The notes under the pieces were generated by a model. That model was not told the DNA's origin, searched no databases, and saw only the letters and a program-made list of their open reading frames with translations. DNA of 64,000 bases from Escherichia phage 55. This document shows positions 3,626 to 60,259 of this stretch, piece by piece. The stretch is taken from the sequence record OQ599310; one strand, 5' to 3'. Both the position numbers and the translations under genes were made by a program. Positions within the stretch are counted from its first letter, which is position 1, and the number at the start of each line of letters is the position of its first letter.

Positions 3626-3635
3626 GCATTTAGCA

Positions 3636-3871: not shown

Positions 3872-3878
3872 GGATATT

Positions 3879-4088
3879 ATGCTTTACGATTATACTGGAA
3901 AATCTGAAGACGGTGTACTTGAACTTTTACCTGAAAGCGCTGAAGATGACGATATGACGACGGTGATGTTTTGTAAAAATGGCCCTGGGGATAAGGGATG
4001 GATTTATCTTCGTCAAGAAAATGACTTAATTGTTTTGGACCCTAAACAAGTTGAAGAACTTTATCAACATTTAAAACACAATCGGTAG
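3879..4088 (+). CDS. hypothetical acidic protein (69 aa)
   Basis: GAGGA RBS before ATG at 3879. Confidence 0.5.
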   Translation: MLYDYTGKSEDGVLELLPESAEDDDMTTVMFCKNGPGDKGWIYLRQENDLIVLDPKQVEELYQHLKHNR

Positions 4089-4126
4089 TTTACAACTTGA
4101 TAGGACTATGTTATAGTAGTCCTATC
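4088..4126 (+). promoter_or_regulatory. early promoter with 10-bp inverted repeat spanning the -10
   Basis: GTTTAC 4088..4093, TATAGT 4112..4117; GATAGGACTA / TAGTCCTATC arms. Confidence 0.55.
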
Positions 4127-4964: not shown

Positions 4965-4973
4965 GGAATTATT

Positions 4974-6843: not shown

Positions 6844-7824
6844 ATGTTCAACGTTCAAATCAAAAAAGGTATCTATCGTAATAACGAAATCTCTGGTTCT
6901 TATGTTGCCACAAAGACCTGGTTCCCGGCAAAGCTTAATCCTGAATGTTCCCACTTAGGTGATGGTAAAATTTTCGTTATGATTGATGGTTCTGAACGTG
7001 GAGTATGGGTCTTCAAATCAGACATCGTAATGGAAGGAGTTGAGACGTCACCAGTTGCAGTTGTTGAAAGCACTGAAGATATGAAAACTCGTATCAACAA
7101 ACGCTTTAAAGTAATGAACATGATGACGAATGGCATTATTGATGGCAAAATTCGTTCACTCATTATTTCAGGTGCAGCTGGTATTGGTAAGACGTATTCT
7201 CTGGATAAAGCACTTAATAATGCTAATGATAATGGTTTCATCAAATACAAAAGCATTAATGGTAAAATCTCCGGTATTGGCCTTTACGAACAACTTTGGC
7301 TCAACCGTGATGAAGACAGCGTTCTCTTAATCGATGACGTTGACGTATTCTCAGATATGGACATCCTGAACCTTCTTAAAGCAGCATTAGATACCGGCGA
7401 TAAACGCAAAGTTTGTTGGAGCACTGCGTCATCTTATCTCGATGATAAGGGTATTGATAAAGAATTTGAGTTTGAAGGTACTATCGTTTTCATTACAAAC
7501 GTTGATATCGATAAAGAGTTAGAACGCGGTTCGAAACTTGCTCCGCACCTTCAAGCTTTAGTATCTCGTTCAGTGTATTTAGACCTTGGAGTACACTCTA
7601 ATGAAGAGATTATGGTTCGAGTTGAAGATGTAATATTATCTACTGACATGATGCAGAAACGTGGTCTGACGGATGCAGAAACGTATAAAGCATTGTCCTG
7701 GATGAAGGCTAACGTATCTCGTCTTCGCAATGTATCATTACGTACGGCTCTTTATGTAGCAGATTTTATTTCAACCGATAAAGATGGTTGGGAGGAAATC
7801 TCTGAAGTAACTTTACTGAAATAA
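6844..7824 (+). CDS. P-loop ATPase
   Basis: Walker A GAAGIGKT, Walker B VLLIDDVD; GGAG RBS before ATG 6844 (track start 6823 lacks RBS). Confidence 0.6.
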   Translation: MFNVQIKKGIYRNNEISGSYVATKTWFPAKLNPECSHLGDGKIFVMIDGSERGVWVFKSDIVMEGVETSPVAVVESTEDMKTRINKRFKVMNMMTNGIIDGKIRSLIISGAAGIGKTYSLDKALNNANDNGFIKYKSINGKISGIGLYEQLWLNRDEDSVLLIDDVDVFSDMDILNLLKAALDTGDKRKVCWSTASSYLDDKGIDKEFEFEGTIVFITNVDIDKELERGSKLAPHLQALVSRSVYLDLGVHSNEEIMVRVEDVILSTDMMQKRGLTDAETYKALSWMKANVSRLRNVSLRTALYVADFISTDKDGWEEISEVTLLK

Positions 7825-7962
7825 GCTTATAGGAAGTTCTGAGGTAACAAAAGCCATAAAGATGAATAATCATATGGCTTACCTAAAAGAAGGACACCAG
7901 GAACCTACTGAGGGCATAGAAATATTTAAAAATAATGATGTACAAATCAAAGAGGATATGTT

Positions 7963-14608: not shown

Positions 14609-15426
14609 ATGTAGTATATAAACTATCATTTATTAATAGAATTAATGCTAAAACCCCACCATATTATTACATTGGAAGTAAAACCAATTGCACTTTTGAT
14701 GGAACGAATATTATTGATAAAAATGGTAAATTTTATTATTCGTCTTCGTCATCTTCCGAATTTCAAAAAGCCTTATTGAAAGAAACGCCGAAAGTTGAAA
14801 TATTATATTTTCAATTAGTCGGAGATGAACAAATAACTAGCATTGAAGCTGAATTTCAAAAGAATATAGAAAAAGATGTATGGAATAAAGAGTATTTTAA
14901 TTTAGCATATGCTGATGGCAAATTTACGACATATGGTATTTCTCCTTCTAAAGAAACTAGAGAAAAGCAATCAATAACCATGATTAAAAGAAATCGTAAT
15001 AAAGGCAAAAATCATGGATTTTATGGAAAGCATCATACTAATTTAGCCAGAAAGAAAATATCAGAAGCTTCTAAAAAATACTGGAAAGAAAATCCGCATC
15101 GTGGATTTTCGCATACAAAGGAAGCTAAAATTAAAATTGGAATTTCATCTTCTATCAGGCATAAAGGAAGTGGAAATCCGATGTATGGTGTAAAACCTTG
15201 GAAAACTCCGAACGCAATTAAATCTGGTACTTGTATATTATGGTTAAAATACGCAGAAATTTTATATGATTATTTAGGTCCAGATTTTAAAAGTAAATCA
15301 TCTATTTTTGCGGATTTAAACTTACCGAAATTTAGAATTGATAATTTCATCAAAAGGTTTAAAATGGGTTGGAACCCATATTTAGACGAAGAATTTCAAA
15401 AGGATAAATTAGAATTATGTCTTTAG
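14605..15426 (+). CDS. free-standing homing endonuclease (Seg-like, divergent GIY-YIG with NUMOD3-type DNA-binding motifs)
   Basis: N-terminal VVYK...YYIGSK; repeated GKHHT..KKIS / SHTKEAKIKIG motifs; very AT-rich gene between 49 and nrdD. Confidence 0.55.
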   Translation: MNVVYKLSFINRINAKTPPYYYIGSKTNCTFDGTNIIDKNGKFYYSSSSSSEFQKALLKETPKVEILYFQLVGDEQITSIEAEFQKNIEKDVWNKEYFNLAYADGKFTTYGISPSKETREKQSITMIKRNRNKGKNHGFYGKHHTNLARKKISEASKKYWKENPHRGFSHTKEAKIKIGISSSIRHKGSGNPMYGVKPWKTPNAIKSGTCILWLKYAEILYDYLGPDFKSKSSIFADLNLPKFRIDNFIKRFKMGWNPYLDEEFQKDKLELCL

Positions 15427-17234
15427 AGAAAGATGTTTTAAATTTTATTTCAAATAAAGATAAAGAATTAAATACCGAAAACGCCAACAAAGATTCTCGT
15501 GTCTTTCCAACAAAAAGAGATTTAATGGCCGGTATTGTTTCTAAACATATCGCTTGTCGTATTCTTCCAAGTCATATTGTAAATGCCCATAATGTTGGAT
15601 TAATTCATTTTCATGATTTAGATTACAGTATATCATTGCCTTTTACTAATTGTTGTTTAGTAGATTTAAAAGGAATGCTTGAGAATGGATTTAAATTAGG
15701 CAATGCTCAAATTGAAACGCCTAAATCTATTGGCGTTGCTACTGCAATTATGGCACAAATTACCGCGCAAGTTGCTTCACATCAGTATGGCGGAACTACA
15801 TTTGCGAATGTCGATAAAGTTCTTTCTCCTTATGTTAAACGTACATACGCTAAACATGTTGAAGATGCAGAAAAATGGCAAATCACCGATGCACCGAATT
15901 ATGCTCAATCTAAAACAGAAAAAGACGTATACGATGCATTCCAAGCTTATGAATATGAAGTAAATACTCTCTTTAGTTCAAACGGACAAACGCCTTTTGT
16001 AACAATTACATTTGGTACGGGAACTGACTGGACTGAACGAATGATTCAGAAAGCAATTCTGAAAAATCGTATTAAAGGTCTTGGACGTGATGGGATAACT
16101 CCTATTTTCCCTAAGCTTGTTATGTTTGTTGAAGAAGGTGTTAATCTTTATAAAGATGATCCGAACTATGATATTAAACAACTTGCGTTAGAATGTGCAA
16201 GCAAAAGAATGTATCCTGACATTATTTCGGTTAAGAATAATAAAGCTATTACTGGTTCTTCAATTCCTGTTTCTCCGATGGGTTGCCGTAGTTTCTTGAG
16301 TGTATGGAAAGATTCGACTGGCAATGAAATTCTTGATGGACGTAATAATCTCGGTGTTGTAACACTGAATCTTCCTCGTATCGCATTAGATTCTTATATT
16401 GGAACACAGTTCAATGAACAGAAATTTACTGAATTGTTTGATGAGCGAATGGACCTGTGTTTTGAAGCTTTGATGTGTAGAATTAGTTCCTTAAAAGGAG
16501 TTAAAGCTACTGTTGCTCCTATTCTTTACCAAGAAGGTGCATTCGGGGTTCGTCTTAAACCTGATGACGACATAATTGAGTTATTTAAAAACGGCAGAAG
16601 TTCAGTGTCTTTAGGATACATCGGTATTCATGAATTGAATATTCTTGTTGGTCGTGATATTGGACAAGAAATTTTAACTAAAATGAATGCTCATCTTAAA
16701 CAGTGGACCGAAAGAACTGGATTTGCTTTTAGTTTATATTCTACTCCTGCTGAAAACTTGTGTTATCGTTTCTGTAAACTCGACACAGAAAAATATGGAA
16801 GCGTAAAAGATGTTACCGATAAAGGCTGGTACACTAATAGTTTCCACGTTTCAGTAGAAGAAAATATTACTCCGTTTGAAAAGATTTCTCGTGAAGCGCC
16901 ATATCATTTCATTGCGACAGGTGGTCACATTTCTTATGTTGAACTTCCTGATATGAAAAATAACTTAAAAGGACTTGAGGCTGTCTGGGATTATGCTGCA
17001 CAACATTTAGATTATTTTGGTGTTAATATGCCAGTAGATAAGTGTTTTACATGCGGAAGTACCCATGAAATGACTCCTACTGAAAACGGATTTGTTTGTT
17101 CAGTTTGCGGAGAAACTGATCCTAAAAAGATGAACACCATAAGAAGAACATGCGGTTATCTTGGAAATCCGAACGAACGCGGATTTAATCTCGGTAAAAA
17201 TAAAGAAATCATGCATAGGGTTAAACACCAATGA
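15417..17234 (+). CDS. nrdD: anaerobic ribonucleoside-triphosphate reductase
   Basis: 605 aa; C-terminal Cys cluster (CFTCGSTHEM...CSVCG) and RxxCGY glycyl-radical-type tail; no intron. Confidence 0.95.
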   Translation: MSLEKDVLNFISNKDKELNTENANKDSRVFPTKRDLMAGIVSKHIACRILPSHIVNAHNVGLIHFHDLDYSISLPFTNCCLVDLKGMLENGFKLGNAQIETPKSIGVATAIMAQITAQVASHQYGGTTFANVDKVLSPYVKRTYAKHVEDAEKWQITDAPNYAQSKTEKDVYDAFQAYEYEVNTLFSSNGQTPFVTITFGTGTDWTERMIQKAILKNRIKGLGRDGITPIFPKLVMFVEEGVNLYKDDPNYDIKQLALECASKRMYPDIISVKNNKAITGSSIPVSPMGCRSFLSVWKDSTGNEILDGRNNLGVVTLNLPRIALDSYIGTQFNEQKFTELFDERMDLCFEALMCRISSLKGVKATVAPILYQEGAFGVRLKPDDDIIELFKNGRSSVSLGYIGIHELNILVGRDIGQEILTKMNAHLKQWTERTGFAFSLYSTPAENLCYRFCKLDTEKYGSVKDVTDKGWYTNSFHVSVEENITPFEKISREAPYHFIATGGHISYVELPDMKNNLKGLEAVWDYAAQHLDYFGVNMPVDKCFTCGSTHEMTPTENGFVCSVCGETDPKKMNTIRRTCGYLGNPNERGFNLGKNKEIMHRVKHQ

Positions 17235-20828: not shown

Positions 20829-21386
20829 ATGACTGAACAAAAACCTAAAAATAACTATGTGAATAATAAAGAGCTTCTCGCCGCTATAATCGAGTGGAAA
20901 AAGGAGCTCCTAAATAATAAAGACCCAAACAAAATTATTCGTCAGAATGATACCATCGGTTTAGCAATTATGCTTATCGCCGAAGGCCTGTCCAAACGTT
21001 TCAACTTTTCAGGATATACCCAGTCTTGGAAGCAGGAGATGATTGCAGACGGGATTGAAGCCTCTATTAAGGGACTTCATAATTTCGACGAAACTAAGTA
21101 CAATAACCCACATGCATACATAACTCGAGCTTGTTTTAATGCTTTTGTCCAACGTATCAAAAAAGAACGTAAGGAAGTTGCAAAGAAATATAGTTACTTC
21201 GTTCATAATGTCTACGACAGTCATGACGATGATATGGTAGCGTTGGTAGATGAAACGTTTATTCAAGACATCTACGATAAAATGACGCATTATGAAGAAT
21301 CCGCTTATAAAGCTCCTGGGGCTGAAAAGAAGGAAGTTGTTAGCGATTCGCCTAGTTTGGATTTTTTATATGAGGATGACAATTGA
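20829..21386 (+). CDS. 55: late-transcription sigma factor gp55
   Basis: [17 protein letters not shown]...; near-collinear with T4 gp55 as recalled; AAGAGG RBS before ATG 20829. Confidence 0.9.
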
Positions 21387-21585
21387 CATCTCTAACTACT
21401 TAGAAGAACCTTTTGACGAAGCAATCCCTTATTTGGTAAAACTGTTGGGTCGTGAATTTAAAATTAATTTTGACATCGACCCTTTGAACCCACATGACGT
21501 GTCATTTTCAATAAATGGGACTCCAGTTGAGTACGAGTTCTGTATTGAAGAGGATGGACGTTTTTATTTTAATTTAATGAGATAA
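21370..21585 (+). CDS. hypothetical small protein
   Basis: ATG pair at 21370/21376 overlapping the gene 55 stop. Confidence 0.45.
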
Positions 21586-21586
21586 T

Positions 21587-21910
21587 ATGACTACCGAGAT
21601 TATTGAAAATAAAGAAGCAGAAGATGCAGTAGCTAAAATGCTACAAGAAATCCAAAAGAAAAATGAAGCTGAAGCACGTAAAAAATCCGAAAAGATTCTT
21701 AAAAAGAATCGTTTTGAACTAAACCGTCTTTATGCACATGCTCAAGAAGCAGCAATTCAAAACAACTTCGAAGCTTACGAATATGCTATTAAGAAATCTC
21801 GGGATATTCTACGACAACCATATAATGACAAGTTAATTAAAATCCAGTGGATTACTACTCGTCAGGCTATTGAGGACATCATTAATGGCGCTAGTTCAAA
21901 CAAAGTTTAA
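21587..21910 (+). CDS. hypothetical protein (107 aa)
   Basis: ATG immediately after previous stop. Confidence 0.55.
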   Translation: MTTEIIENKEAEDAVAKMLQEIQKKNEAEARKKSEKILKKNRFELNRLYAHAQEAAIQNNFEAYEYAIKKSRDILRQPYNDKLIKIQWITTRQAIEDIINGASSNKV

Positions 21911-22091
21911 ACGTCTGAAGCTGAACGCAGGGTTCACCCTTAAATTGGGAGGTCCTCTCTGTGTTAAAATTTCTGAAAAGGAATATCACGACGGTTCTAT
22001 TACAGAAATTTGTCCGCCTATTGTAAAGGCAGACCCAAAACAACTCGTGTGGGTCGATTCATTTCAAGTTAAGAAATGGTGGAAACGATGA
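21885..22091 (+). CDS. hypothetical small protein (68 aa)
   Basis: internal ATG of track ORF 21870, overlapping the upstream gene end. Confidence 0.45.
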   Translation: MALVQTKFKRLKLNAGFTLKLGGPLCVKISEKEYHDGSITEICPPIVKADPKQLVWVDSFQVKKWWKR

Positions 22092-22130
22092 GAGAAATCG
22101 ATTTAGGTATTTTCTGAGAGGTGCTTATGC

Positions 22131-22304
22131 GTGACGAACATCCCGACTTCTGAAAATTTCGATAAAATCCGTAAAGGCAAAGCAGAAAGAACGAGACGTT
22201 TTAAAGAGTCTTATGATAAAGCTAAAGCCGAAGGAACTATTACATACAAGCCCATTCGATTTAAAAGTTCAAATGAGCCTCTGTACGGTGTACTATGTGG
22301 ATAG
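22131..22304 (+). CDS. possible GTG-initiated small ORF (57 aa), not in track
   Basis: GAGAGG upstream, basic protein-like sequence, stop abuts the terminator hairpin. Confidence 0.2.
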   Translation: MTNIPTSENFDKIRKGKAERTRRFKESYDKAKAEGTITYKPIRFKSSNEPLYGVLCG

Positions 22305-22327
22305 GAACTCTTCGGAGTTCCTTTTTT
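22304..22327 (+). terminator. stem-loop terminator with UUCG tetraloop
   Basis: GGAACTC-TTCG-GAGTTCC + TTTTTT. Confidence 0.6.
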
Positions 22328-22350
22328 GCTTTATAAACGGATGATAGAAT
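22327..22350 (+). promoter_or_regulatory. middle promoter of gene 47 (MotA box TGCTTTA + TAGAAT)
   Basis: TGCTTTA 22327..22333, 11-nt gap, TAGAAT 22345..22350. Confidence 0.5.
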
Positions 22351-22373
22351 GAATTAACTAATGAGGAAATAAT

Positions 22374-23393
22374 ATGAAAATTTTGCACTTAGGCGACTTC
22401 CATATCGGAGTCAAACAAGACGACCCGTGGGTTCAAGATATTCAACGTGATGGTATTCGTCAAGCAATTGAATACTCTAAGAAACACGGGATTAAAACTT
22501 GGATTCAGTACGGCGATTGGTTTGACGTCCGTAAAGCAATAACACATCGTACGATGGAATTCAATCGTGAAATCGTTGATATGATTTCTAAAGCAGGCAT
22601 TCACGTTCATGTCACGATAGGAAACCATGACATGGCGTTTAAGAATACAATAACACCTAACACTGTTTCTGAATTGTTAACTCAATTTGAAAACTTTACT
22701 ATTTACGAACATCCAACTACTGTAGATTTTGACGGATGTCTGATTGATATCGTTCCATGGATGTGTGAAGAAAATACAGGTGAAATCTTAGAGCACATCA
22801 AGACTTCTTCTGCTGCGTATTGTGTTGGTCATTGGGAACTGAACGGCTTTTATTTCTATAAAGGAATGAAGTCTCATGGGCTTGAACCTGATTTCTTAAA
22901 GACCTATAAACAAGTCTGGTCTGGCCACTTCCACACAATCTCTGAAGCTGCTAACGTCAAATATATTGGGACACCATGGACCCTTACTGCAGGCGATGAG
23001 AACGACCCGCGCGGATTCTGGGTATTCGACACTGATGTTGAACGTATGGAATTTATTCCTAATGAAACAACATGGCATCGACGAATCACTTATCCGTTTA
23101 AAGGCAAAATCAATTATTCTGATTATACTAATCTAGCCGTACGTGTTATAGTATCAGAAATTGATTCAGAGTTGACTAAGTTTGAATCTGAACTTGAAAA
23201 AGTAGTTCACTCTCTTCGTATGGTTTCTAAAGTTGATAACAGTGTTGAATCTGATGACGACCAGGAAATCGAGATTAAATCACTTCAAGATATCATTAAA
23301 GAATATATTGACGCGATTCCAGATATCTCAGACGAAGACCGAGAAGCGCTGGTCAAATATTCCAACGAACTTTATATCGAGGCAACACAATGA
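22374..23393 (+). CDS. 47: recombination nuclease subunit gp47 (Mre11-like phosphoesterase)
   Basis: 339 aa; HLGDFHIG and GNHD metallophosphatase motifs. Confidence 0.9.
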   Translation: MKILHLGDFHIGVKQDDPWVQDIQRDGIRQAIEYSKKHGIKTWIQYGDWFDVRKAITHRTMEFNREIVDMISKAGIHVHVTIGNHDMAFKNTITPNTVSELLTQFENFTIYEHPTTVDFDGCLIDIVPWMCEENTGEILEHIKTSSAAYCVGHWELNGFYFYKGMKSHGLEPDFLKTYKQVWSGHFHTISEAANVKYIGTPWTLTAGDENDPRGFWVFDTDVERMEFIPNETTWHRRITYPFKGKINYSDYTNLAVRVIVSEIDSELTKFESELEKVVHSLRMVSKVDNSVESDDDQEIEIKSLQDIIKEYIDAIPDISDEDREALVKYSNELYIEATQ

Positions 23394-31766: not shown

Positions 31767-32402
31767 ATGAAAACTACTCCTATTACTATCGCTATTGACG
31801 CAATTATAAAACAAGCTTCTTCTTTGGCCGCTATGGCCAAAGTAATTAGTCAAAACCCTGCTCGTTATAATGCTATTCTAGAAACTCTTCGACGCCCAGG
31901 ACTTAGCAATTATGAAAGCCGAGTAATTATTACAGGTGTTGGTAAGAATGCTAATATTGCAACTAAAGCTTCTGAGACATTTGCTTCACTCGGTATCCCA
32001 AGTATGTACTTGAACACCGGGCATTATTCTCACGGTGATGCAGGATTCATTGCGCCTAATGATGTGTTGATTCATATTAGTCGTTCTGGTAAAACTGAAG
32101 AAATGATAGGCGTGGCTAAGCATCTTAAAATGATTCGACCGAACGTCAAACAGATTCTGTTGCATTGTAACCCAGACATTCCACAAGAAAATGAAGCCCT
32201 TTTTGATTACTCTTTCTGTACAGGCATCGCGGTAGAGGTTGATGAGAATTCTCTGGCTCCGACCATGTCCACTACATTGTTGTTAGCGCTTATCGATACG
32301 TTTGCTATCAACCTTTCGTCTGAACGTGGATTTACCTCTAATGACTTCCTTAAGTTCCATCCAGGCGGTGCACTAGGTGCCATGTTACGAGGCGAGCAAT
32401 GA
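31767..32402 (+). CDS. single-domain SIS sugar-phosphate isomerase, D-arabinose-5-phosphate isomerase-like (KdsD/GutQ family)
   Basis: ITGVGKNANIATKASETFASLGIPS...HGDAGFI...ISRSGKTEE...LAPTMSTT...FHPGGALG tracks the KdsD SIS domain motifs. Confidence 0.7.
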   Translation: MKTTPITIAIDAIIKQASSLAAMAKVISQNPARYNAILETLRRPGLSNYESRVIITGVGKNANIATKASETFASLGIPSMYLNTGHYSHGDAGFIAPNDVLIHISRSGKTEEMIGVAKHLKMIRPNVKQILLHCNPDIPQENEALFDYSFCTGIAVEVDENSLAPTMSTTLLLALIDTFAINLSSERGFTSNDFLKFHPGGALGAMLRGEQ

Positions 32403-32542
32403 AAGCAATAACAATAGGACTTTTACTATTGATGCTTGCCATGACTATCTACTGGAGCTTAACGGCTCCAGTAATGATTCCAACACTTGTAATTGGATGG
32501 ATTATGATTGGTCTACAGGCAAAGTATGAATGCTTTAACTAG
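32399..32542 (+). CDS. small membrane ORF (47 aa), not in track
   Basis: ATGA overlap with upstream stop; two hydrophobic segments. Confidence 0.3.
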   Translation: MKAITIGLLLLMLAMTIYWSLTAPVMIPTLVIGWIMIGLQAKYECFN

Positions 32543-32583
32543 AATAGTGTACAATACACCTACTTACCAATGAGGACTTCAAC

Positions 32584-34269
32584 ATGAAAAAAGCTGTTAT
32601 TCTTGGTGCTGGATTAGCAACTCGTTTATATCCAATTACTCACCATATTCCTAAGGTGCTTGTTAACTATAAACAAGACACTATTCTGAGCAATTTGTAT
32701 ACAATTTATTCTGACCTTGGCGCAGATGAAATTATTGTAGTAGTTCATTCAAAATTTGCTGAAACTGTTCGAGCTTATTGTGAGCAAGAAGGGTTCAATG
32801 TGACTATTCGTACAGTTGATGAAGCGTATGGATCTGCTTATGCTCTTGCTAAATTACACAAAGATTTAGACGGCCATAATGTAATTGTTAACTGGTGTGA
32901 TATTATTCCTGATTTTGGTTCATGGTCTTGGAATGTCAACGCAATCTATGTTAAGGGTGATGAATGTCGATATAATTTCGACGGTGAAAATATCACTAAC
33001 GTAGGTTCAACAGGCGGTAATGTTGTAGGAATTTATCAGTTCAAAGACTGGGAATTCTATATGGGTTCTACCGATGAGGAAATTCATGAATACTGCAAAG
33101 GACGTGATTTCGTAGAATTCCTTTACAGCGGCGCATTCAATAAATCAGAGCTTATGAATATAATTGATTTAGGTGATATGCCTAAACTTGAAAAAGCTCA
33201 TGAAGTTCGTGAACTTAATCGTAGTTTTAATGCAGTTGAAATTGGTGAAGAAACTGTAACTAAATTCGCATTAACCGAACAGGGACGAGCTCTTCAGAAA
33301 GATGAGATTTCATGGTATTTGAAAGTGAAATCAGATTCAGTTCCTCAGTTAGTTTCTGTTAATGAAAACAATTTTGAAATGGAACGTATTAAAGGTAAGC
33401 CGGCATTTGAATATATTAAATCCAAATCAAGTCTTGCTCGTCCACAAATTGTTGATGCAATTTTAGATGCACTGAAATTCAGCACAGACACGTATTTTGT
33501 AAGTCCTGAAACTGTTCGTCGTGATTTCACTAAAGAATTCTATACGAAAGTTATTGATCGTTGTGAAAGCATTCAACCATTGATTGATTCATTTGGTAAA
33601 ATCACACATGTGAACTACACTAAGATTGGACGTCTGAAGCCAATGTTGAAACAAGCTTTAGAACATCTTATTCGTTATCATAACCGTTCTCAGGGACAGT
33701 ACTCTGTTATTCATGGTGACCCGAACTTCAGTAATACTATGATTACTGATAACGGCGAAGTCAAGTTTATCGACCCTCGTGGATATTTTGGCGAAACCAA
33801 GATTTACGGGCCAAAATTGTATGACGAAGCTAAAGTGCTTTATGCTGTTTCAGGTTATGATGAATTCAATGCTAATCCGACCTGGGGACAGTTTACTATT
33901 GATGAAACAACTTGTAATGTGACTATTAACATCAATCCATTAATTTACAAATATGGAAAGATGAGTTCGTTTAACGAGTATCATCATTTGGCGGTGGCAA
34001 TTATCTGGATTGCATTAGGTGGTTATTTCAAGAATAATCCACTTAAAGCGGTAGCCGCATATTATAAAGGTATGGAACTTCTGACTAAGCAATTACGTAA
34101 CATGGGCCGTGTACTTCAAGACGGCTCTATTAGTTATGACGTAGCAGAACCTGTAACGGCTACTCTGATTACAAAAAATCCTGGTAAATGGGTACTAACT
34201 GATAAAGAAACTGGTGTTTCCTATCGTCCAATCGGTGGCGATATCACTCACCAATGGGAACGAATCTAA
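32584..34269 (+). CDS. bifunctional sugar-1-phosphate nucleotidyltransferase / sugar kinase
   Basis: N-terminus AVILGAGLATRLYPIT (sugar nucleotidyltransferase G-x-G-x-R-L motif); C-terminus HGDPNFSN...IDPRG (APH/choline-kinase-like catalytic loop). Confidence 0.65.
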   Translation: MKKAVILGAGLATRLYPITHHIPKVLVNYKQDTILSNLYTIYSDLGADEIIVVVHSKFAETVRAYCEQEGFNVTIRTVDEAYGSAYALAKLHKDLDGHNVIVNWCDIIPDFGSWSWNVNAIYVKGDECRYNFDGENITNVGSTGGNVVGIYQFKDWEFYMGSTDEEIHEYCKGRDFVEFLYSGAFNKSELMNIIDLGDMPKLEKAHEVRELNRSFNAVEIGEETVTKFALTEQGRALQKDEISWYLKVKSDSVPQLVSVNENNFEMERIKGKPAFEYIKSKSSLARPQIVDAILDALKFSTDTYFVSPETVRRDFTKEFYTKVIDRCESIQPLIDSFGKITHVNYTKIGRLKPMLKQALEHLIRYHNRSQGQYSVIHGDPNFSNTMITDNGEVKFIDPRGYFGETKIYGPKLYDEAKVLYAVSGYDEFNANPTWGQFTIDETTCNVTININPLIYKYGKMSSFNEYHHLAVAIIWIALGGYFKNNPLKAVAAYYKGMELLTKQLRNMGRVLQDGSISYDVAEPVTATLITKNPGKWVLTDKETGVSYRPIGGDITHQWERI

Positions 34270-34655
34270 TGCACCGTGTAGAAAACATGCTTAATCTTTG
34301 TTTTGATGTCGATGATTGTATAACAGAGTGGAATAACAATCGTGATTACGTGAACTTCAAACCAGACGTCGAAATGGTGTCTGCCATTAATGCCTTGTAT
34401 GATGCAGGGCATACCATAACGCTTTACACTGCTCGCGGTATGAAGTCAGTAGGTCCCGGTCGTATAGCAATTGACATTCTCCCGAGTCTGATTCAGAACT
34501 TGGAAAACATTGGCTTGAAGTACCATAATTTGCTAACACATAAACCAGTATATGATTGGATTATCGACGACAAAGCTATGCGTCCTGACGAATTCAAAGC
34601 TCTTATGAATAAAGGCGAATTCGAAACATTTAAATCATATAAACCGAATCTATAA
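34269..34655 (+). CDS. HAD-superfamily phosphatase
   Basis: motif I FDVDDCIT, motif II TLYTAR, motif III K (LTHKP), motif IV WIIDD; TAATG-coupled start. Confidence 0.6.
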   Translation: MHRVENMLNLCFDVDDCITEWNNNRDYVNFKPDVEMVSAINALYDAGHTITLYTARGMKSVGPGRIAIDILPSLIQNLENIGLKYHNLLTHKPVYDWIIDDKAMRPDEFKALMNKGEFETFKSYKPNL

Positions 34656-34709: not shown

Positions 34710-35870
34710 ATGAACACTTTTAAAATCGGAACGAATTTTGATTTAGCTCTTCTTGATAAAATCGTAGAGCTCAATAAAACCTATCCTAATAGCTTGATAA
34801 ACGAAGTATATGGCTCTACAAGAGAAATGGCTTTTGTAGCAGCCAGACCTGATTTTAGGCTTCCTGACGTTGACAAAAAGATGTTAGAAGACTACGTTAA
34901 ACGTTGTAACGAATTAGGTATTTGCTTTAACTATACACTCAACACGATAAATCCTGGTTCAAAAAGAGAACTAGTTGAGTGGAAGAAGAAAGCTATTCAG
35001 GATTATGTTCAGTATCTTTGGTCAATAGGCGTATGGCGTATTACTATCGCTAACCCTGTTGTTATGGAAATTGTTCGTGAAGTCAATAAAGATATTGAGA
35101 TTGAAGTTTCAACAATTCTACATGTCGATGCTGTAACTCAAATCAAATACTTGCACGACCAATATAACATCAAAAAAGTCTGTTGCGGAATTCATAAGAA
35201 CCGTTCAGTTTCTTTCCTGAAGCGTGCAGCAGAGTTTTGCAATAAGAACAATATAATATTTGAAGTTCTTGTAAATGAGTTCTGTTCTAATGCTGGTAAA
35301 GGGTATACAACACATTGTAGTTATCGTGACTCTTGCTATATTTTCCATAGTACTGATGTTACCGCTGATGATGCTAAATCCTTAAATGGATATCCAATGC
35401 AGCACTGTATTAAAGCTCGTGATACAGATCCATTTAACTGGTTGAGAACTCGTTTTGTTCGTCCTCAAGATTTGAAACTTTATAATGATATTGGTATCAC
35501 TCAATTCAAAGTTTCAGGACGTACAGGTAGCACAGACTACATTTTGAAAGTTCTTGAAGCATACGCTTCTGAAAAGTTTGAAGGTAATTTGTTAGAACTG
35601 TGGAAGCCTTTAGAGACTATTTTCACTCTTGAAAACGAAACTGAGTTTTCACATACAGTAAATATTGAAACCTCTTTGTTAGATGGCTTTTTAGAAAAAA
35701 GGTGGTTCAGACATCCAGATTTTGATTGTGCTAATGAAATCTGTGGGTCAACGTGTACATATTGTGAAAGGTATTATAAACGTCAATTATCTAAAAACGG
35801 GTTAGCAGAAAACTCCATATCTATTATTGATATAACTAGCTCTGATGACGCTTTGAGATACCCGGAATGA
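34710..35870 (+). CDS. hypothetical enzyme with C-terminal Cys cluster (possible metal/Fe-S site)
   Basis: 386 aa; C-x4-C-x3-C-x2-C (CANEICGSTCTYC) near C-terminus plus internal Cys cluster; no confident family assignment. Confidence 0.55.
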   Translation: MNTFKIGTNFDLALLDKIVELNKTYPNSLINEVYGSTREMAFVAARPDFRLPDVDKKMLEDYVKRCNELGICFNYTLNTINPGSKRELVEWKKKAIQDYVQYLWSIGVWRITIANPVVMEIVREVNKDIEIEVSTILHVDAVTQIKYLHDQYNIKKVCCGIHKNRSVSFLKRAAEFCNKNNIIFEVLVNEFCSNAGKGYTTHCSYRDSCYIFHSTDVTADDAKSLNGYPMQHCIKARDTDPFNWLRTRFVRPQDLKLYNDIGITQFKVSGRTGSTDYILKVLEAYASEKFEGNLLELWKPLETIFTLENETEFSHTVNIETSLLDGFLEKRWFRHPDFDCANEICGSTCTYCERYYKRQLSKNGLAENSISIIDITSSDDALRYPE

Positions 35871-36106
35871 TTTCTAGAAAAAGTTTTAATTATAAACTTA
35901 ACGAAGAGATTTTGACTATGAAACTGAACACTAACGAACAAATTCTTAAAAAGGCCCTTATGGGCCTGTTTGAAACCAAAGCGGCTAAAGTGATTAAAGA
36001 ACCTGTTCAATTGGAATACTACACTGATGCATTCCTTCATAGTGTTCTTGGAAGTATAGATTCTGAAGCTTTACGTTATATCAACATTGCCAAGAAATTC
36101 AAATAA
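35867..36106 (+). CDS. hypothetical small protein
   Basis: ATGA-coupled ORF; alternative internal ATG at 35918. Confidence 0.45.
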   Translation: MISRKSFNYKLNEEILTMKLNTNEQILKKALMGLFETKAAKVIKEPVQLEYYTDAFLHSVLGSIDSEALRYINIAKKFK

Positions 36107-36148: not shown

Positions 36149-36865
36149 ATGGGAAAACATAACACAATGAAATATATCAAAGCCGCAGATTTTCAAACCG
36201 CATTTAAAGCAGTCAATCGTGAAATTTTAGAAAACCCGGAATTCGTAACCGATTCTCGTATTGGACGTTGTAATGAAATTGGGTCTATGACAGTAGTTGT
36301 TGACAATCCATCATCATTCAAAATGACCGACCCACGTATTAACCGCATCTCTTATGAATATGCCGAAGACTTCTGGAAGTTTATGATTTCTGGTGGTACT
36401 GATGCAGAAGAAGCGTTTAAGGCATATCCTAATGTCGCTAAATTTATTTCTAAACCTAAATCAGACGCTTTGCCTGCAAACTTCAACACTTTCTACGGTC
36501 CTCGCATTGCGGCCCAATTACCAGCTCTTCTAAAAGAACTTAAAGAGAAACCTAACTCTCGAAGAGTTGTGTTCCAAATTCTAGAAAGTTCTGATCAGGC
36601 TTTGCTTGATTCGGACGAAACACTTGAATATCCATGTACTGACTCAGTAACTTATTATATTCGTGATGGTAAGCTTTATACCCACTGCCATATGCGTTCT
36701 CAGAACTGTGCTGTTGTTATGCAGTTGGATTTTTATCTCCAAGGAAAATTACTTCATTATATCGCTAACGAATGCGGTGTAGAAGTTGGTGATTATACTC
36801 ATACCATGGTAAGTGCCCATGTGTTTGAACGTGATTTTGATTATGTTAAAGGATTCCTTGACTAA
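36149..36865 (+). CDS. 42: dCMP hydroxymethylase (thymidylate-synthase fold)
   Basis: KPNSRRVVFQI and PCTDSVTYYIRDGKLYTHCHMRSQNCAVV align with T4 gp42 NPDSRRGIMIY / MCTNTVQYLIRD...NMRSNDVV as recalled; N-terminus divergent. Confidence 0.75.
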   Translation: MGKHNTMKYIKAADFQTAFKAVNREILENPEFVTDSRIGRCNEIGSMTVVVDNPSSFKMTDPRINRISYEYAEDFWKFMISGGTDAEEAFKAYPNVAKFISKPKSDALPANFNTFYGPRIAAQLPALLKELKEKPNSRRVVFQILESSDQALLDSDETLEYPCTDSVTYYIRDGKLYTHCHMRSQNCAVVMQLDFYLQGKLLHYIANECGVEVGDYTHTMVSAHVFERDFDYVKGFLD

Positions 36866-37764
36866 TGGCTATTTTCCGCGTACCAATCTTGAGTATGCGG
36901 TCTTATGAAACTGGACAGTATGCTATCCTTAAGGATGGCAACTTCCAACTTCATTTGCACCGTGCTAATCCAGGTGATGTGATTACATATCCACGTAATG
37001 CATCTGATATTAAAGAATGCGAACGTCTTTTCCCAGAATTTAAGTTTGTTCCATTATGGTATAAAGATAACGCGTATAACACTCGTAAATATTTCTGGTC
37101 TGAAAATGAATTTGTGGTTGATTCATTAATTGCTTATTATGATTGTGATTTTCTAATCACAGATATCACCGGATATGACGGCGCTTTTGATGTTGAATTC
37201 AATTTCAATATCACTGCAGACCCTAATAAACCACGTTTTTATATTGACGAATTCTTAAAAACCGATATGTTGTCGGTTAATCGTTCACTTCAAACTACTG
37301 TGTTGAATGAACGTCAAAAAGAAGTGCTGGTTAACGCAGGTGCAGATGGTAATAAGATTATCGTAACGCAGAAAGTTATACGTCCTTCCATCATGCAGCG
37401 TCTTGTAGGTGATTTGGCCCCTATTCATCTAGATGGTATTTTTCATCCATTTCGAATTAGTGACCCATGCTATCGTTTTGAACAAGTGGTTGAATGTGCA
37501 ATTCAATTAGGTCAACCGCTTTATATAACCGATCCAAATAATAGTTTCGACAGAAATAAGTATCCTGAAGAAGCGCTGATTCGAATTTTTAAACCAACTA
37601 AAACTGAGTACTATCAAATTCTTAAAGGACGACCGAAGATTCAATATTTCGAAAATCCTGAAGAAGTATTCCATCCAGGTCTTGGCGAGTTCATCTACTT
37701 TAATGCTTTAATTTCTTCGCCGTATAATATACCTAAATACGAAGATGTCGTAATCGAGGAATAA
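36865..37764 (+). CDS. hypothetical protein (299 aa) at the T4 beta-gt locus
   Basis: TAATG-coupled to gene 42; no family motif recognised; not similar to T4 beta-gt as recalled. Confidence 0.6.
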   Translation: MAIFRVPILSMRSYETGQYAILKDGNFQLHLHRANPGDVITYPRNASDIKECERLFPEFKFVPLWYKDNAYNTRKYFWSENEFVVDSLIAYYDCDFLITDITGYDGAFDVEFNFNITADPNKPRFYIDEFLKTDMLSVNRSLQTTVLNERQKEVLVNAGADGNKIIVTQKVIRPSIMQRLVGDLAPIHLDGIFHPFRISDPCYRFEQVVECAIQLGQPLYITDPNNSFDRNKYPEEALIRIFKPTKTEYYQILKGRPKIQYFENPEEVFHPGLGEFIYFNALISSPYNIPKYEDVVIEE

Positions 37765-37765: not shown

Positions 37766-38314
37766 ATGGCTAAAATTATTTTAGTAGATGGCCCAGATAA
37801 TGCCGGTAAAACAACTTTCATTAATGACATAATGGAAATTAGTGAAAGATACGTAAAGATTGATTTCCCTAAACGAACAGTTGATGGACGTTTCGATGTT
37901 AAGTCTCGAAATGAAGTTGGTTGTTTCGAAACGATGTTGAATTATTTAGACCCTACTAAGATTTATCTGTTAGACCGTGGATATATTAGTAACTGGGTTT
38001 ATGGACGTATTCGACAAGATGCGGACTCTGTTCTTGATGTTTATGAGCAGGATTATGTTCGTCTTTGCCAAAACCATGATGTGTTCACAATTATTTTAAC
38101 ACGTAACGAAATGACTGAAAGTTTTGAAGACGACCTTATTACTTTGTCTTCATTCGGTTTTAATACAGTCATTTCACATTTTGAAGAGTTTGCAATTCAT
38201 AACAAAATCCAAACGTATCAATTACTTAATCATGATGGTGCTAACAAAGTTATAGGATTTAATGCAAGCGAACGTAATGGTTTGATTATAGAAATCATCA
38301 AATGGGCTCGTTAA
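37766..38314 (+). CDS. P-loop kinase-like protein
   Basis: ILVDGPDNAGKTTF Walker A near N-terminus, typical of small (d)NMP/nucleoside kinases. Confidence 0.5.
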   Translation: MAKIILVDGPDNAGKTTFINDIMEISERYVKIDFPKRTVDGRFDVKSRNEVGCFETMLNYLDPTKIYLLDRGYISNWVYGRIRQDADSVLDVYEQDYVRLCQNHDVFTIILTRNEMTESFEDDLITLSSFGFNTVISHFEEFAIHNKIQTYQLLNHDGANKVIGFNASERNGLIIEIIKWAR

Positions 38315-56519: not shown

Positions 56520-56942
56520 ATGGCTTTTAAAGGTTTTGAAGTTGGTAAGAAATATCGTATTATCAAAGGTCAAGAAGATAATTTCTTGAGAATTCTTAAT
56601 ACAACTGGTAAACGTCTTAACACTACTCTGCATACAGTTTTATTATCAAGAGATTTTATTGTAGAAGAGATGATTGGTTACGGTGTTTCAATGATTGCCG
56701 CTGAAACCGATGGACCTGGACGTACAATCATTAGTATGCAAGGTGATATTCTGCTTTATGGTGCAGAATTTAAATTCTTTGAAGAAGTTAAGGAACCAGA
56801 TACAGCTGTCGATTTCAAAAAAGGCTCTATAGAATTTGTTGATGGTTCGGTTATCGTATCAGGCGATGTGGTCATTACAGTTAAAAGTGAACAAGGGCGT
56901 TTGGCTGCAATTGATGCACTTCAGAAAATTAAATTTAAATAA
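56520..56942 (+). CDS. hypothetical protein (140 aa)
   Basis: ATG right after upstream stop; terminator follows. Confidence 0.55.
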   Translation: MAFKGFEVGKKYRIIKGQEDNFLRILNTTGKRLNTTLHTVLLSRDFIVEEMIGYGVSMIAAETDGPGRTIISMQGDILLYGAEFKFFEEVKEPDTAVDFKKGSIEFVDGSVIVSGDVVITVKSEQGRLAAIDALQKIKFK

Positions 56943-56959
56943 GGGCTTCGGCCCTTTTT
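56943..56959 (+). terminator. stem-loop terminator with UUCG tetraloop
   Basis: GGGC-TTCG-GCCC + TTTTT. Confidence 0.6.
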
Positions 56960-57005: not shown

Positions 57006-58823
57006 ATGATTAAAAATGAAATTAAGGTATTGTCAGATGTAGAACATATTAAGAAACGTAGTGGTATGTATATTGGTTCTTCTGCTAAAGAAGCCCACGA
57101 GCGTTTTTTGTTTGGTAAATATCAACAAGTTGAATATGTTCCTGGCCTGGTTAAATTAATCGATGAGATTATTGACAACTCGGTTGATGAAGCTATTCGT
57201 ACATCATTTAAGTTTGCAAATAAAATTGATGTGCAAATTAAAAATAATCAAGTTTCGGTGGAAGATAACGGACGTGGTATTCCTCAAGGTTTAGTTACCG
57301 ACCAAACAGGTGAACAAATTCCTGGGCCTGTAGCAGCCTGGACTATTCCAAAGGCCGGTGGTAACTTTGGTGATGATTCTGAACGCAAGACTGGTGGTAT
57401 GAACGGCGTCGGGAGTAGTTTAACTAATATCTTCTCTACGTTGTTTACAGGCATCACGTCAGATGGCGAAAATGAAATCACTGTTAACTGTTCAAACGGA
57501 ATGGAAAACAAATCATGGTCTTCTAAGAAATCTAAAGGTAAAGGCACTAAAGTAATCTTCACTCCTGATTTCACTTCATTTGAAGAGCATAATTTATCTC
57601 AAATTTATTTAGATATTACTTTAGACCGACTTCAAACATTGGCAGTCGTTTATCCTGATATCAAGTTCACATTTAATGGTAAAAAGGTTGATGGTAATTT
57701 TAAACGATTTGCTAAACAATTTGGTGAAGATAACATCATTCAAGAAAATGATAAAGTCTCTATAGCATTCACAACATCACCAGATGGCTTCCGTCATTTA
57801 ACTTATGTGAATAACATCCATACTAAAAATGGTGGTCATCATGTTGAATGTGTAATGGATGATATCTGCGAACATCTTTTGCCGGGTATTAAAAAGAAAT
57901 ATAAGGGTATTGAAGTCACTAAAGCTCGTGTTAAAGAATGTCTCACAATGTTGATGTTTATTAGAGACATGAGCAACATGCGTTTTGATTCTCAGACTAA
58001 AGAACGTTTAACGTCAACGTATGGTGATATTCGTAATCATATCCAATTAGATACTAAGAAAATTGCTCAGGCACTTCTTAAAAACGAAGCCTTGATTATG
58101 CCTATTGTTGAAGCAGCATTAGCTCGTAAATTGGCGGCAGAAAAGGCTGCAGAAACTAAAGCAGCTAAAAAGGCAACTAAAGCTAAGGTTCATAAGCATA
58201 TTAAAGCTAACCAATGTGGTAAAGATGCAGATACGACATTGTTTTTAACAGAAGGTGATTCGGCAATTGGTTATCTCATTGATGTTCGTGACCGTGAACT
58301 ACACGGTGGATTCCCATTACGTGGTAAGGTGATGAATAGCTGGGGTATGTCATATGCTGATATGATGAAGAACAAAGAGCTCTTTGATATCTGTGCTATC
58401 ACGGGTCTTATTCTTGGTGAAAAGGCAGAGAATACGAACTATCGTAATATTGCAATTATGACTGATGCCGATCATGACGGTCTTGGAAGCATTTATCCGG
58501 CTTTGCTTGCTTTCTTTAGTAATTGGCCTGAATTGTTTGAACAAGGACGTATTCGCTTTGTTAAAACACCTGTAATTATTGCACAAATTGGCAAAACTCA
58601 AAAATGGTTTTATACTGTAGCTGAGTATGAAGAAGTTAAAGATACACTGCCTAAGCATAGTATTCGATACATCAAGGGATTAGGCTCACTTGAAAAGTCA
58701 GAATATCGTGAAATGATTCAGAACCCTGTGTACGACGTAGTTAAACTTCCTGAAAATTGGAAAGAACTCTTTGAAATGTTGATGGGTGATGATTCAGAAC
58801 TTCGTAAAGAATGGATGTCCTAA
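57006..58823 (+). CDS. 39: topoisomerase II large (ATPase) subunit, fused gene 39+60 type
   Basis: 605 aa; GHKL ATPase motifs (IDNSVDEA, GRGIP, GGMNGVGSS) and TOPRIM-like EGDSA; one continuous ORF. Confidence 0.9.
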   Translation: MIKNEIKVLSDVEHIKKRSGMYIGSSAKEAHERFLFGKYQQVEYVPGLVKLIDEIIDNSVDEAIRTSFKFANKIDVQIKNNQVSVEDNGRGIPQGLVTDQTGEQIPGPVAAWTIPKAGGNFGDDSERKTGGMNGVGSSLTNIFSTLFTGITSDGENEITVNCSNGMENKSWSSKKSKGKGTKVIFTPDFTSFEEHNLSQIYLDITLDRLQTLAVVYPDIKFTFNGKKVDGNFKRFAKQFGEDNIIQENDKVSIAFTTSPDGFRHLTYVNNIHTKNGGHHVECVMDDICEHLLPGIKKKYKGIEVTKARVKECLTMLMFIRDMSNMRFDSQTKERLTSTYGDIRNHIQLDTKKIAQALLKNEALIMPIVEAALARKLAAEKAAETKAAKKATKAKVHKHIKANQCGKDADTTLFLTEGDSAIGYLIDVRDRELHGGFPLRGKVMNSWGMSYADMMKNKELFDICAITGLILGEKAENTNYRNIAIMTDADHDGLGSIYPALLAFFSNWPELFEQGRIRFVKTPVIIAQIGKTQKWFYTVAEYEEVKDTLPKHSIRYIKGLGSLEKSEYREMIQNPVYDVVKLPENWKELFEMLMGDDSELRKEWMS

Positions 58824-58845
58824 GCTCCTTCGGGAGCTTCATTTT
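58823..58845 (+). terminator. stem-loop with UUCG tetraloop after gene 39
   Basis: AGCTCC-TTCG-GGAGCT followed by T-rich tract. Confidence 0.5.
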
Positions 58846-58865
58846 AATTTTAATAAGGCTTAATT

Positions 58866-59966
58866 ATGAAAGTTATGTTTATCCCATCTCGTGCAGTCCC
58901 ATTTAATCCTGACCGTGTACAAGGTGGTCTTGAAGCAGTACATTTAAATGTGTTGAAATATTTAGTTTCTATCGGTGCCGATATTGATTATATTGGTTTT
59001 GATAATGACACATTTGGTGATTGGAAGGTTAATCATCATCCTGTTGGTCATCTGACTAAATTCAGTCTAGGTATGAGTTATACTATGGCTCGTAAGATTG
59101 TTGAACTAGCCGGCATCCATGAATACGATTTTGTTGTTACTATGGAACCGACTAAACTAACCGTTCAGGCAATTAAAGACGCAGGTCTCTCTAAAGTTCA
59201 TAAGAATTTTATGGCAACACCATTTGAACCGGTATCTCGTGGCATTGTTCAAATTTGGGACCAGACTATTCAAATTCATAAGAACGGTGGTAAGAGTTAT
59301 GCTCCTACTAAAGCCTTCCGTGAATTTGAACGTAAATATTGTTATATGACTTCAGGTCTGACTGACAAAATTGATTATGATTATTGGCGAGCAAATCCGT
59401 TGTTTGAAGCCGAAGATTATCCGGTTATTTGTTTGAATGAGAAACCTGAAGTTCTTCCGGCGACTGATCTGATTATTAGTGCACAACGTTATGACACTAA
59501 AATGCGTCGTACTGATGTTGCTCTTGAAGCGATTAAAGCACTAGGCGAAAATGGTGCAGGATACTGTCCTAGTAAATGGGCACCACCAGCTAAATATCCT
59601 GTTATTATTGATGCTCCACACAGTGAAATTATGGAACGTCTTAAAACAGCTAAAGCACTTATTAATACGTGTCCTGACACAGGTACGGTAGAGAATAGTT
59701 CTATTGAAGCCATCTCTAAAGGTGTCCCTGTAATCCAGCTAGTTTTTAAGGATTATCCTCATGCGACATTTGAATACGACCCAGATACTGTGCGTGTAGA
59801 AATTGATTCCTCTACTCCTAAGAAAGAAGTAGTTGCGCTTTACACAAAAGCTGTATTAGAATTCACTGACACATACGAAGCTCGAGTTAAACGTGCTGAA
59901 GCAGTATGGAAGAAGTATAACCGAGATGCGGTTGTTGCGATGTGGGATAAAATCTTCACAGCGTAA
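58866..59966 (+). CDS. GT-B-fold (GT4-like) glycosyltransferase; candidate DNA hydroxymethylcytosine glycosyl(arabinosyl)transferase
   Basis: N-terminal GGLEAVHLNVLKYLVSIG and C-terminal E-x7-E-like ENSSIEAISKGVPVI; sits where T4 has gene 60/mobA; no alpha-/beta-gt homolog elsewhere in the window. Confidence 0.5.
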   Translation: MKVMFIPSRAVPFNPDRVQGGLEAVHLNVLKYLVSIGADIDYIGFDNDTFGDWKVNHHPVGHLTKFSLGMSYTMARKIVELAGIHEYDFVVTMEPTKLTVQAIKDAGLSKVHKNFMATPFEPVSRGIVQIWDQTIQIHKNGGKSYAPTKAFREFERKYCYMTSGLTDKIDYDYWRANPLFEAEDYPVICLNEKPEVLPATDLIISAQRYDTKMRRTDVALEAIKALGENGAGYCPSKWAPPAKYPVIIDAPHSEIMERLKTAKALINTCPDTGTVENSSIEAISKGVPVIQLVFKDYPHATFEYDPDTVRVEIDSSTPKKEVVALYTKAVLEFTDTYEARVKRAEAVWKKYNRDAVVAMWDKIFTA

Positions 59967-59981
59967 ATCCTGAATCGCCTG

Positions 59982-60032
59982 AGGCACTATTACACATAAG
60001 ATGATAGATTATATGGTCTTTAGTAATAGTGC
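59982..60032 (+). promoter_or_regulatory. 11-bp perfect inverted repeat bracketing a promoter-like region upstream of rIIA.1
   Basis: GGCACTATTAC 59982..59992 / GTAATAGTGCC 60022..60032, 29-nt spacer containing GATGATAGATTAT. Confidence 0.4.
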
Positions 60033-60058
60033 CCTAGGAATCTACTGAAGAGAATATT

Positions 60059-60259
60059 ATGAGAACATATAACGTGGACTTGGAACTTTTTGATAAAGCA
60101 GTGCTCCGGGAATTCCGGCTTATCCAAAGATTTTTTGATATCGAGTCAGCAGAGTCCTTTAAAGAACGCTTTAAAGAAATTCGATATAAAATACAAACCG
60201 ATACAGCTACTAAAGAAGAACTTCTTGAAGTAGCAGAAATTTTTAAACGTAACTTGTGA
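60059..60259 (+). CDS. rIIA.1: rIIA.1-like small protein
   Basis: 66-aa ORF immediately upstream of rIIA; AAGAGAA RBS. Confidence 0.5.
   Translation: MRTYNVDLELFDKAVLREFRLIQRFFDIESAESFKERFKEIRYKIQTDTATKEELLEVAEIFKRNL

Follow-up and report, generated by a model that had tools for sequence, protein, structure and literature searches.

Arabinose was found in the DNA of phage RB69 by Thomas et al. in 2018, who described the modification as arabinosyl-5-hydroxymethylcytosine (ara-hmC) and proposed ORF003c as the arabinosyltransferase (PMC6024577). According to Lee et al. (2026), the RB69 base is not ara-hmC but beta-D-arabinofuranosyl-(1->3)-alpha-D-arabinofuranose ether-linked to 5-hydroxycytosine (5hoC), present beside a mono-arabinosyl form, and the base of Acinetobacter phage DLP3 bears a third beta-arabinofuranose (Araf) (PMC13326640). 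The same authors list two putative RB69 transferases: gp46:47, encoded beside the synthase of the modified nucleotide and proposed to act first, and gp3, labeled 'beta-arabinosyltransferase 2' (PMC13326640). They also report that purified DLP3 gp76 and gp77 together add a third arabinose to RB69 DNA from uridine diphosphate (UDP)-Araf (PMC13326640). Here we examine the counterpart of gp3 in Escherichia phage 55 (sequence record OQ599310), a single open reading frame (ORF) of 366 amino acids (aa) at positions 58866..59966 (+ strand) of the 64,000-nucleotide (nt) stretch that we analyzed, hereafter the window. The ORF encodes a GT-B glycosyltransferase that we consider a candidate for the distal (second) DNA arabinofuranosyltransferase of this phage.

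Two further groups of DNA glycosyltransferases invite comparison. T4 alpha-gt (GT72) and beta-gt (GT63) share with the ORF product its GT-B fold and its presumed UDP-sugar donor and DNA acceptor, but they use another donor sugar and another acceptor (hmC), are encoded at other genome loci, and have no pairwise similarity to it. Phages T2 and T6 encode a second glycosyltransferase that extends a DNA-attached sugar. This beta-1,6-glucosyl-alpha-glucose transferase ('TAGT') builds a disaccharide on modified cytosine in DNA and is in that respect a functional analog of the enzyme considered here; as described, it is set apart by its sugar (glucose rather than Araf), its base (hmC rather than 5hoC), and its protein family.

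Identity and genomic setting of the ORF

The ORF product is 99.7% identical at the amino acid level to RB69p003 (RB69 ORF003c/gp3; NP_861693.1), from which it differs solely by T327I, and 361 of its 366 residues (98.6%) are identical to the PDB 9iqz chain (E 8e-250). PDB entries 9IQZ (apo) and 9IR0 (the same protein with UDP), released on 2025-07-16, hold the 'phage HY126 glycosyltransferase'. Judged by its sequence, the ORF is the Mosigvirus ortholog of RB69 gp3/ORF003c and of the crystallized HY126 enzyme. All three have the same length and the same slot between gene 39 and rIIA.1, and we see no difference of substance among them. Full-length homology and gene 39/rIIA.1 synteny are accompanied in the window, as in the RB69 ORF003c/HY126 family, by a co-occurring synthase, a UDP-Araf cassette, and a second GT-B enzyme (GT1), all described below.

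Upstream of the ORF lies gene 39 (57006..58823), which encodes a full-length, unsplit topoisomerase II large subunit of 605 aa, and downstream lies rIIA.1 (60059..60259; RB69 annotation), followed by rIIA and rIIB; given these neighbors, the ORF fills the place held in T4 by gene 60/mobA. The window is colinear with RB69. The ORF begins with ATG, 7 nt after an AAGG Shine-Dalgarno sequence (58855..58858, +) read off the sequence, and the N-terminus of its product, MKVMFIPSR, aligns with MKILYLPCR in the homologs of Acinetobacter phages. The RB69 ortholog differs at 16 nt and 1 aa (ratio of nonsynonymous to synonymous substitution rates, dN/dS, 0.04) and the HY126 ortholog, taken from the GenBank gene, at 25 nt and 7 aa (dN/dS 0.12), ratios that indicate a real gene under purifying selection. 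The preliminary description of the window, made from the letters alone, was therefore right to place a 366-aa gene between gene 39 and rIIA.1. A sigma-70 promoter scan around the ORF returned fewer sites than it did in shuffled sequence, and we claim no promoter there.

By megablast, the gene was matched in 163 phage records, nearly all of them Mosigvirus (RB69 ORF003c at 98.5% nt identity). The exact protein sequence is present in GenBank (JS09_0177; O157 typing phages 3, 6, and 13), in most cases under the label 'hypothetical protein', and PHROG 8302, of 'unknown function', covers residues 1-366 of 366 (E 6e-223). The HY126 gene in GenBank (PP658200; positions 3001..4101 of the extracted locus L003) encodes L288-G289 in place of the family-invariant P288-V289 seen in the window and in the crystallized HY126 protein; the mismatch probably stems from a mistake in the genome deposit or from a difference in the construct.

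Fold and conserved residues

A GT-B fold was assigned to ORF003c by Thomas et al. with HHpred and Phyre, and Gly-20, Arg-207, and Glu-281 were singled out (PMC6024577). Foldseek with a model of the ORF product returned 9IR0/9IQZ at the top and then the GT4-type GT-B enzymes PimA, BshA, WaaG, LmbT, and PglA; HHpred as used by Thomas et al. points to the same fold and the same kind of neighbors (PMC6024577), and the GT-B/GT4-like fold named in the preliminary description is upheld. After the ortholog, the nearest solved folds are bacterial GT4 retaining enzymes (PimA, BshA, WaaG, PglA, MshA), at Foldseek E values of 6e-10 to 1e-7 and 12-15% identity. Our own AlphaFold2 (AF2) model was weak (predicted local distance difference test, pLDDT, 60; six-sequence alignment) and served only for retrieval of the ortholog structure and for the general fold class. 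UDP is bound in the ortholog structure 9IR0, and from 98.6% identity to that protein the window protein would likewise adopt the two-Rossmann GT-B fold and bind UDP.

The N-terminal G-G-x-E loop reported in the preliminary description is present as G20-G21-L22-E23 and is invariant across all family members. A C-terminal E-x7-E motif, reported alongside it, is absent from that part of the protein: the single E-x7-E falls in the N-terminal half (residues 86-94), and what the family keeps invariant near the C-terminus is the pair E276-x4-E281, within NTC-x-x-TGT-V-E-N-S-S-I-E-A-I, where E281 aligns with the glutamate of 'EA..G.PV'. The family-invariant G20/G21, R208, E276, and E281 match GT-B nucleotide-sugar-binding positions noted by Thomas et al. 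(PMC6024577).

Searches of the ORF product against Pfam (E <= 10; PF00534 Glycos_transf_1 and PF13439 Glyco_transf_4 included) and NCBIfam returned no family, and single-protein and family-profile searches of PDB sequences matched the ortholog and no other entry. We therefore keep the kinship with GT4 at the level of fold only. Membership in CAZy GT4 by sequence was rejected on the lack of a match to the family hidden Markov model (HMM) and the replacement of E-x7-E by E-x4-E; the presumed DNA-borne acceptor is a further difference from the bacterial GT4 enzymes. The protein has a near-neutral isoelectric point, comparable to that of T4 alpha-gt, and no hydrophobic segment (Kyte-Doolittle maximum 1.07, 19-residue window). 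The ORF product is thus supported as a putatively soluble, UDP-sugar-dependent, GT4-like GT-B glycosyltransferase of the DNA-arabinosylation pathway.

T4-type glucosyltransferases, by comparison, left no trace. BLASTP of the ORF product against T4 alpha-gt (E 7.1) and T4 beta-gt (E 3.0) detected no similarity, as the preliminary description had said, and a tblastn search of the entire window with the two T4 enzymes gave a best E of 2.9. Between genes 55 and 47 (21383..22374) lie only homologs of a-gt.2 to a-gt.5. Two traits of the T4 type, homology to alpha-gt/beta-gt and an hmC acceptor derived from a gp42-type hydroxymethylase, are missing from the window. The earlier statement that no T4-type glucosyltransferase lies between 55 and 47 or between 42 and uvsX is correct to the letter, but it passed over GT1, a GT-B enzyme encoded at 36865..37764.

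Modified base and supply of UDP-arabinose

In the pathway of Lee et al., 5-hydroxy-deoxycytidine monophosphate (5-hydroxy-dCMP, or 5hodCMP) is made by a flavin-dependent homolog of thymidylate synthase that is recognizable by D169N (PMC13326640). The 'gene 42' position of the window (36149..36865, +) encodes a 238-aa thymidylate-synthase homolog (Pfam PF00303), which by the function given in that paper would be a 5-hydroxy-dCMP synthase and not a T4-type dCMP hydroxymethylase. The protein is ~98% identical to PDB 9IQC/9IR2, and its HMMER alignment to bona fide thymidylate synthase puts N at Escherichia coli ThyA D169 and D at N177. It shares 70% identity with DLP3 gp80, an experimentally verified 5hodCMP synthase, versus 25% with T4 gp42. 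The D169N/N177D signature and these identities indicate that the acceptor chemistry is that of 5hoC and not of hmC, so the hmC acceptor of the preliminary description does not stand.

The sugar donor would come from the 31767..34655 cassette, which encodes three enzymes on the + strand. These are a SIS-domain arabinose-5-phosphate isomerase (31767..32402; RB69 gp55; Pfam SIS and RB69 annotation), a bifunctional nucleotidyltransferase/kinase that makes UDP-Araf (32584..34269; RB69 gp52:53, AfhE-like; Pfam NTP_transferase with weak kinase matches, NCBIfam uridylyltransferase; PMC13326640), and a HAD-like sugar phosphatase (34254..34655; RB69 gp51, AfhF-like; NCBIfam TIGR01689 capsule biosynthesis phosphatase, E 2e-13; PMC13326640). 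The ORF starts 24.2 kb past the end of this cassette, in keeping with the distance of about 25 kb stated earlier.

It is scarcely credible that the ORF product transfers arabinose to hmC, the literal claim of the preliminary description, or that it is a cell-envelope glycosyltransferase that does not act on DNA. Ara-hmC was how the 2018 paper described the modification (PMC6024577), and the structural neighbors of the protein are mostly GT4 enzymes acting on lipids, lipopolysaccharide, and small molecules. However, RB69-type DNA has no hydroxymethyl bridge (PMC13326640), the synthase bears the 5hoC signature, the ORF family is confined to phages with a 5hoC-arabinose cassette, and the protein has no hydrophobic segment; phyletic distribution and the absence of hydrophobic segments were our grounds for rejecting the cell-envelope role.

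A second GT-B enzyme beside the synthase

Directly 3' of the synthase gene lies an intact gene (36865..37764, +) for a 299-aa GT-B glycosyltransferase, GT1, which corresponds to RB69 gp46:47 and DLP3 gp79 and is a candidate for the base-proximal arabinosyltransferase. The protein was modeled as a GT-B glycosyltransferase with a pLDDT of 94.7, and its fold neighbors are GT4-like, of the same kind as those of the 366-aa ORF; Pfam, NCBIfam, and PDB-sequence searches of GT1 gave no match. Homologs are often annotated 'RNA polymerase binding protein'. GT1 is the unsplit form of RB69 ORF047 and ORF046, which are separate in the reference record through what Lee et al. consider a sequencing error (PMC13326640). 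According to the Durham-collection paper, both transferase genes are also present in Mosigvirus NP, whose DNA contains mono- and di-arabinosyl forms at 1:4.

GT1 occurred in 348 records, always beside the synthase, and in 138 protein clusters. Its hosts and genera include Dhakavirus and phages of Klebsiella, Enterobacter, Edwardsiella, Yersinia, Serratia, Proteus, Providencia, Shewanella, and Acinetobacter, and it is the one GT-B protein present in every arabinosylating T4-like phage. The claim that the 366-aa ORF is the transferase for the cassette sugar accordingly stands in part: the protein belongs to the arabinosylation pathway, but it is probably not the base transferase, given a universal GT1 inside the cassette.

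Distribution and arabinose chain length

The ORF family has a narrower range than GT1. By tblastn it was found in 211 phage records, comprising Mosigvirus (~155, with one copy each), Acinetobacter T4-like phages (55, with two copies each, at ~43% identity), and a single Tegunavirus. This 'Tegunavirus' record, with a family member of <60% identity, falls outside both Mosigvirus and the Acinetobacter phages. A word-indexed protein search returned five clusters, HMMER, run exhaustively over 1.84 billion representatives, found only 12 family proteins at E <= 1e-3, and divergent metagenomic members trace back to the same isolate phages. At genus level the family occupies a subset of the GT1 range, and ~137 records have GT1 without any member of it.

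Copy number in this family parallels the number of arabinoses on the base. Serratia phage LC53 is reported to carry a single arabinose and Thanatos is also reported to be mono-arabinosylated; in the loci of both we found GT1 and no family member. RB69 and NP, with two arabinoses, have one copy, and tri-arabinosylated DLP3 has two. A double arabinose is also reported for Bas46/Bas47, for which one copy was taken from the genus, with no record-by-record check. Thanatos TH1_065 (378 aa), which occupies the position of DLP3 gp77, was considered as a hidden family member and rejected (hhalign probability 0.1%; Pfam Peptidase_U32).

DLP3 gp77 and gp76, the closest relatives with a characterized activity, are 42.8% and 40.8% identical to the window ORF product, respectively, and share with it full-length homology and the invariant GGLE, R208, E276, and E281. 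The identity between the two, 57.5%, exceeds that of either to the window protein, and the window gene is therefore co-orthologous to both and not to gp77 specifically. The two systems also differ in arrangement and outcome: in Acinetobacter phages, two paralogs sit inside the cassette right after the kinase gene, whereas in the window a single copy lies 21 kb away from the cassette, and addition of the third sugar in DLP3 needs both gp76 and gp77, whereas the DNA type of the window ends at two sugars.

Probable order of the two transfers

Since copy numbers of 0, 1, and 2 parallel one, two, and three arabinoses and GT1 is universal, the simplest reading is that GT1 acts next to the base and that the ORF family extends the chain. 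This reading agrees with the proposal of Lee et al. (PMC13326640) and is probable rather than proven. The phage would replace cytosine with 5hoC by way of 5-hydroxy-dCMP from the synthase at 36149..36865, and the 31767..34655 cassette would supply UDP-D-arabinofuranose. Transfer of the first arabinose, alpha-linked to O5 of the base, is most likely the task of GT1. The 366-aa ORF product would then act on DNA, most likely adding the distal beta-(1->3) arabinofuranose and so converting mono-arabinosyl-5hoC (Ara-5hoC) to di-arabinosyl-5hoC, with UDP-Araf as the probable donor. The enzyme most likely behaves like DLP3 gp76/gp77, with the T2/T6 second-sugar glucosyltransferase as an analog. Overall, we think it reasonably probable that the ORF product is the enzyme of the second step.

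Several points weigh against this placement. The accessible literature holds no direct assay of the ORF product or of RB69 gp3, and our own AF2 model of the ORF was poor (pLDDT 60). He et al. (2026) reportedly crystallized the ortholog of the ORF and not GT1, and are said to call it simply a 'glycosyltransferase'; their study may assign the protein to the base-proximal step. Lee et al. saw no activity on 5hoC DNA from GT1 (DLP3 gp79) by itself or from the ORF-family enzymes by themselves, and the first step was not reconstituted (PMC13326640). The Thanatos homolog of GT1, TH1_063, is reported to act in vitro as a UDP-xylose pyrophosphorylase and not as a transferase (PMC12838424). Furthermore, both glycosyltransferases of the window are GT4-like, yet the two linkages are opposite in anomeric configuration. 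Since GT1 and the ORF product share neighbors of this retaining type, fold cannot assign the steps, and we dropped the retaining GT4 neighbors of the ORF as an arbiter between alpha and beta.

TH1_063 (positions 6995..7897 of the extracted Thanatos locus L008) is 47.5% identical to the window GT1, and the pyrophosphorylase report sits oddly with the confident GT-B fold of GT1 and its proposed role as first arabinosyltransferase.

Alternatively, the ORF product could itself be the base-proximal enzyme, placing the first arabinose on 5hoC in DNA (or in the nucleotide), with GT1 adding the second sugar or performing a sugar-nucleotide step. This was the original proposal of 2018 (PMC6024577), and the pyrophosphorylase activity reported for the Thanatos GT1 homolog (PMC12838424) and the failure to reconstitute the first step with GT1 (PMC13326640) both fit it, as does the choice of this protein for crystallography in the HY126 pathway and its deposition as 'phage HY126 glycosyltransferase'. 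We nevertheless consider the alternative unlikely: mono-arabinosylated LC53 and Thanatos modify their DNA with arabinose although they lack the ORF family, GT1 alone among the GT-B proteins is shared by all arabinosylating phages, the characterized homologs gp76 and gp77 transfer sugar to sugar (PMC13326640), and Lee et al. keep gp3 second in a paper that cites He et al. (PMC13326640).

A role purely as an obligate partner, in which the ORF product contributes to both sugar additions in a complex with GT1 or as an oligomer, appears quite improbable, since GT1 works without the ORF family in ~137 phage records and since in Mosigvirus the two genes lie 21 kb apart, with no evidence of interaction. 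A related and rather doubtful speculation starts from the two GT4-like enzymes, which make opposite linkages, presumably with UDP-Araf as the sole donor. One enzyme of the pair, perhaps the ORF product with its non-canonical E-x4-E, might be mechanistically unusual, perhaps inverting or active on a DNA-borne sugar only as a heteromer with GT1, and the move from the cassette to the gap between gene 39 and rIIA.1 might be the trace of a chain-extension module acquired recently.

Second-step action of the ORF product is also in line with genetic data: the Mosigvirus phage Bas46 is reported to be viable without its arabinosyltransferase, 'Aat', and to show changed sensitivity to defense systems, an outcome that an accessory step would predict, although the identity of Aat with this gene is not confirmed.

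Other features of the locus

Terminator-like sites are enriched around the ORF, with 6 found versus 1.8 expected. One of them, a hairpin with a UUCG tetraloop and a U-rich tail (58822..58839, +; -10.5 kcal/mol, z -1.4), overlaps the final bases of the stop codon of gene 39. A second short GC stem with a UUCG tetraloop and a U-rich tail (56941..56956, +) overlaps the end of the ORF at 56520..56942 and lies ~50 nt upstream of gene 39. Both look like terminators or mRNA-stabilizing elements. A long hairpin is predicted between the stop codon of the 366-aa ORF and rIIA.1 (59978..60038, +; -28.5 kcal/mol, z -4.06), and none of 200 shuffles was as stable. Among the window, RB69, and HY126, the gap between the ORF and rIIA.1 has 3 variable columns in 106 nt, 2 of which (59986 and 60030) pair with each other in the predicted hairpin, as A-U, A.C, or G.U.

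Two further genes flank the synthase and GT1. A Peptidase_U32-like gene (34710..35870, +) lies between the phosphatase and the synthase, and a gene for a thymidylate-kinase-like nucleotide kinase (37766..38314, +; RB69 gp45; 98% identity to RB69p045), a structural assignment taken from Table 1 of PMC13326640, precedes uvsX. The U32-like gene is kept in the arabinosylation cassettes of Mosigvirus (34710..35870 in the window), Thanatos (8462..9598 of L008), and LC53 (4796..5965 of the extracted locus L007) and is absent from the DLP1/DLP3 cassette; Lee et al. guess that it encodes a 'sugar or heterocycle reductase' (PMC13326640). Most genes of the window encode products 98-100% identical to RB69 proteins, with lower values for nrdD (15417..17231; 93.9%) and the small ORF049 homolog (35867..36103; 89.9%), a divergence that suggests mosaic exchange among Mosigvirus genomes.

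Implications

The preliminary description is best seen as a correct rediscovery, with outdated chemical detail and one gene overlooked, of a system whose essentials were published between 2018 and 2026. The system and the consequences named below are already on record for RB69, HY126, Bas46/47, NP, and DLP3, and the window adds one near-identical copy. Arabinosylated 5hoC shields the DNA of Mosigvirus against restriction enzymes, DNA glycosylases, and certain CRISPR-Cas systems, and it makes phages under consideration for therapy harder to sequence and engineer. Because the number of arabinoses alters which host defenses are evaded or triggered, the enzyme that sets chain length, most likely the product of this ORF in Mosigvirus, is of practical interest.

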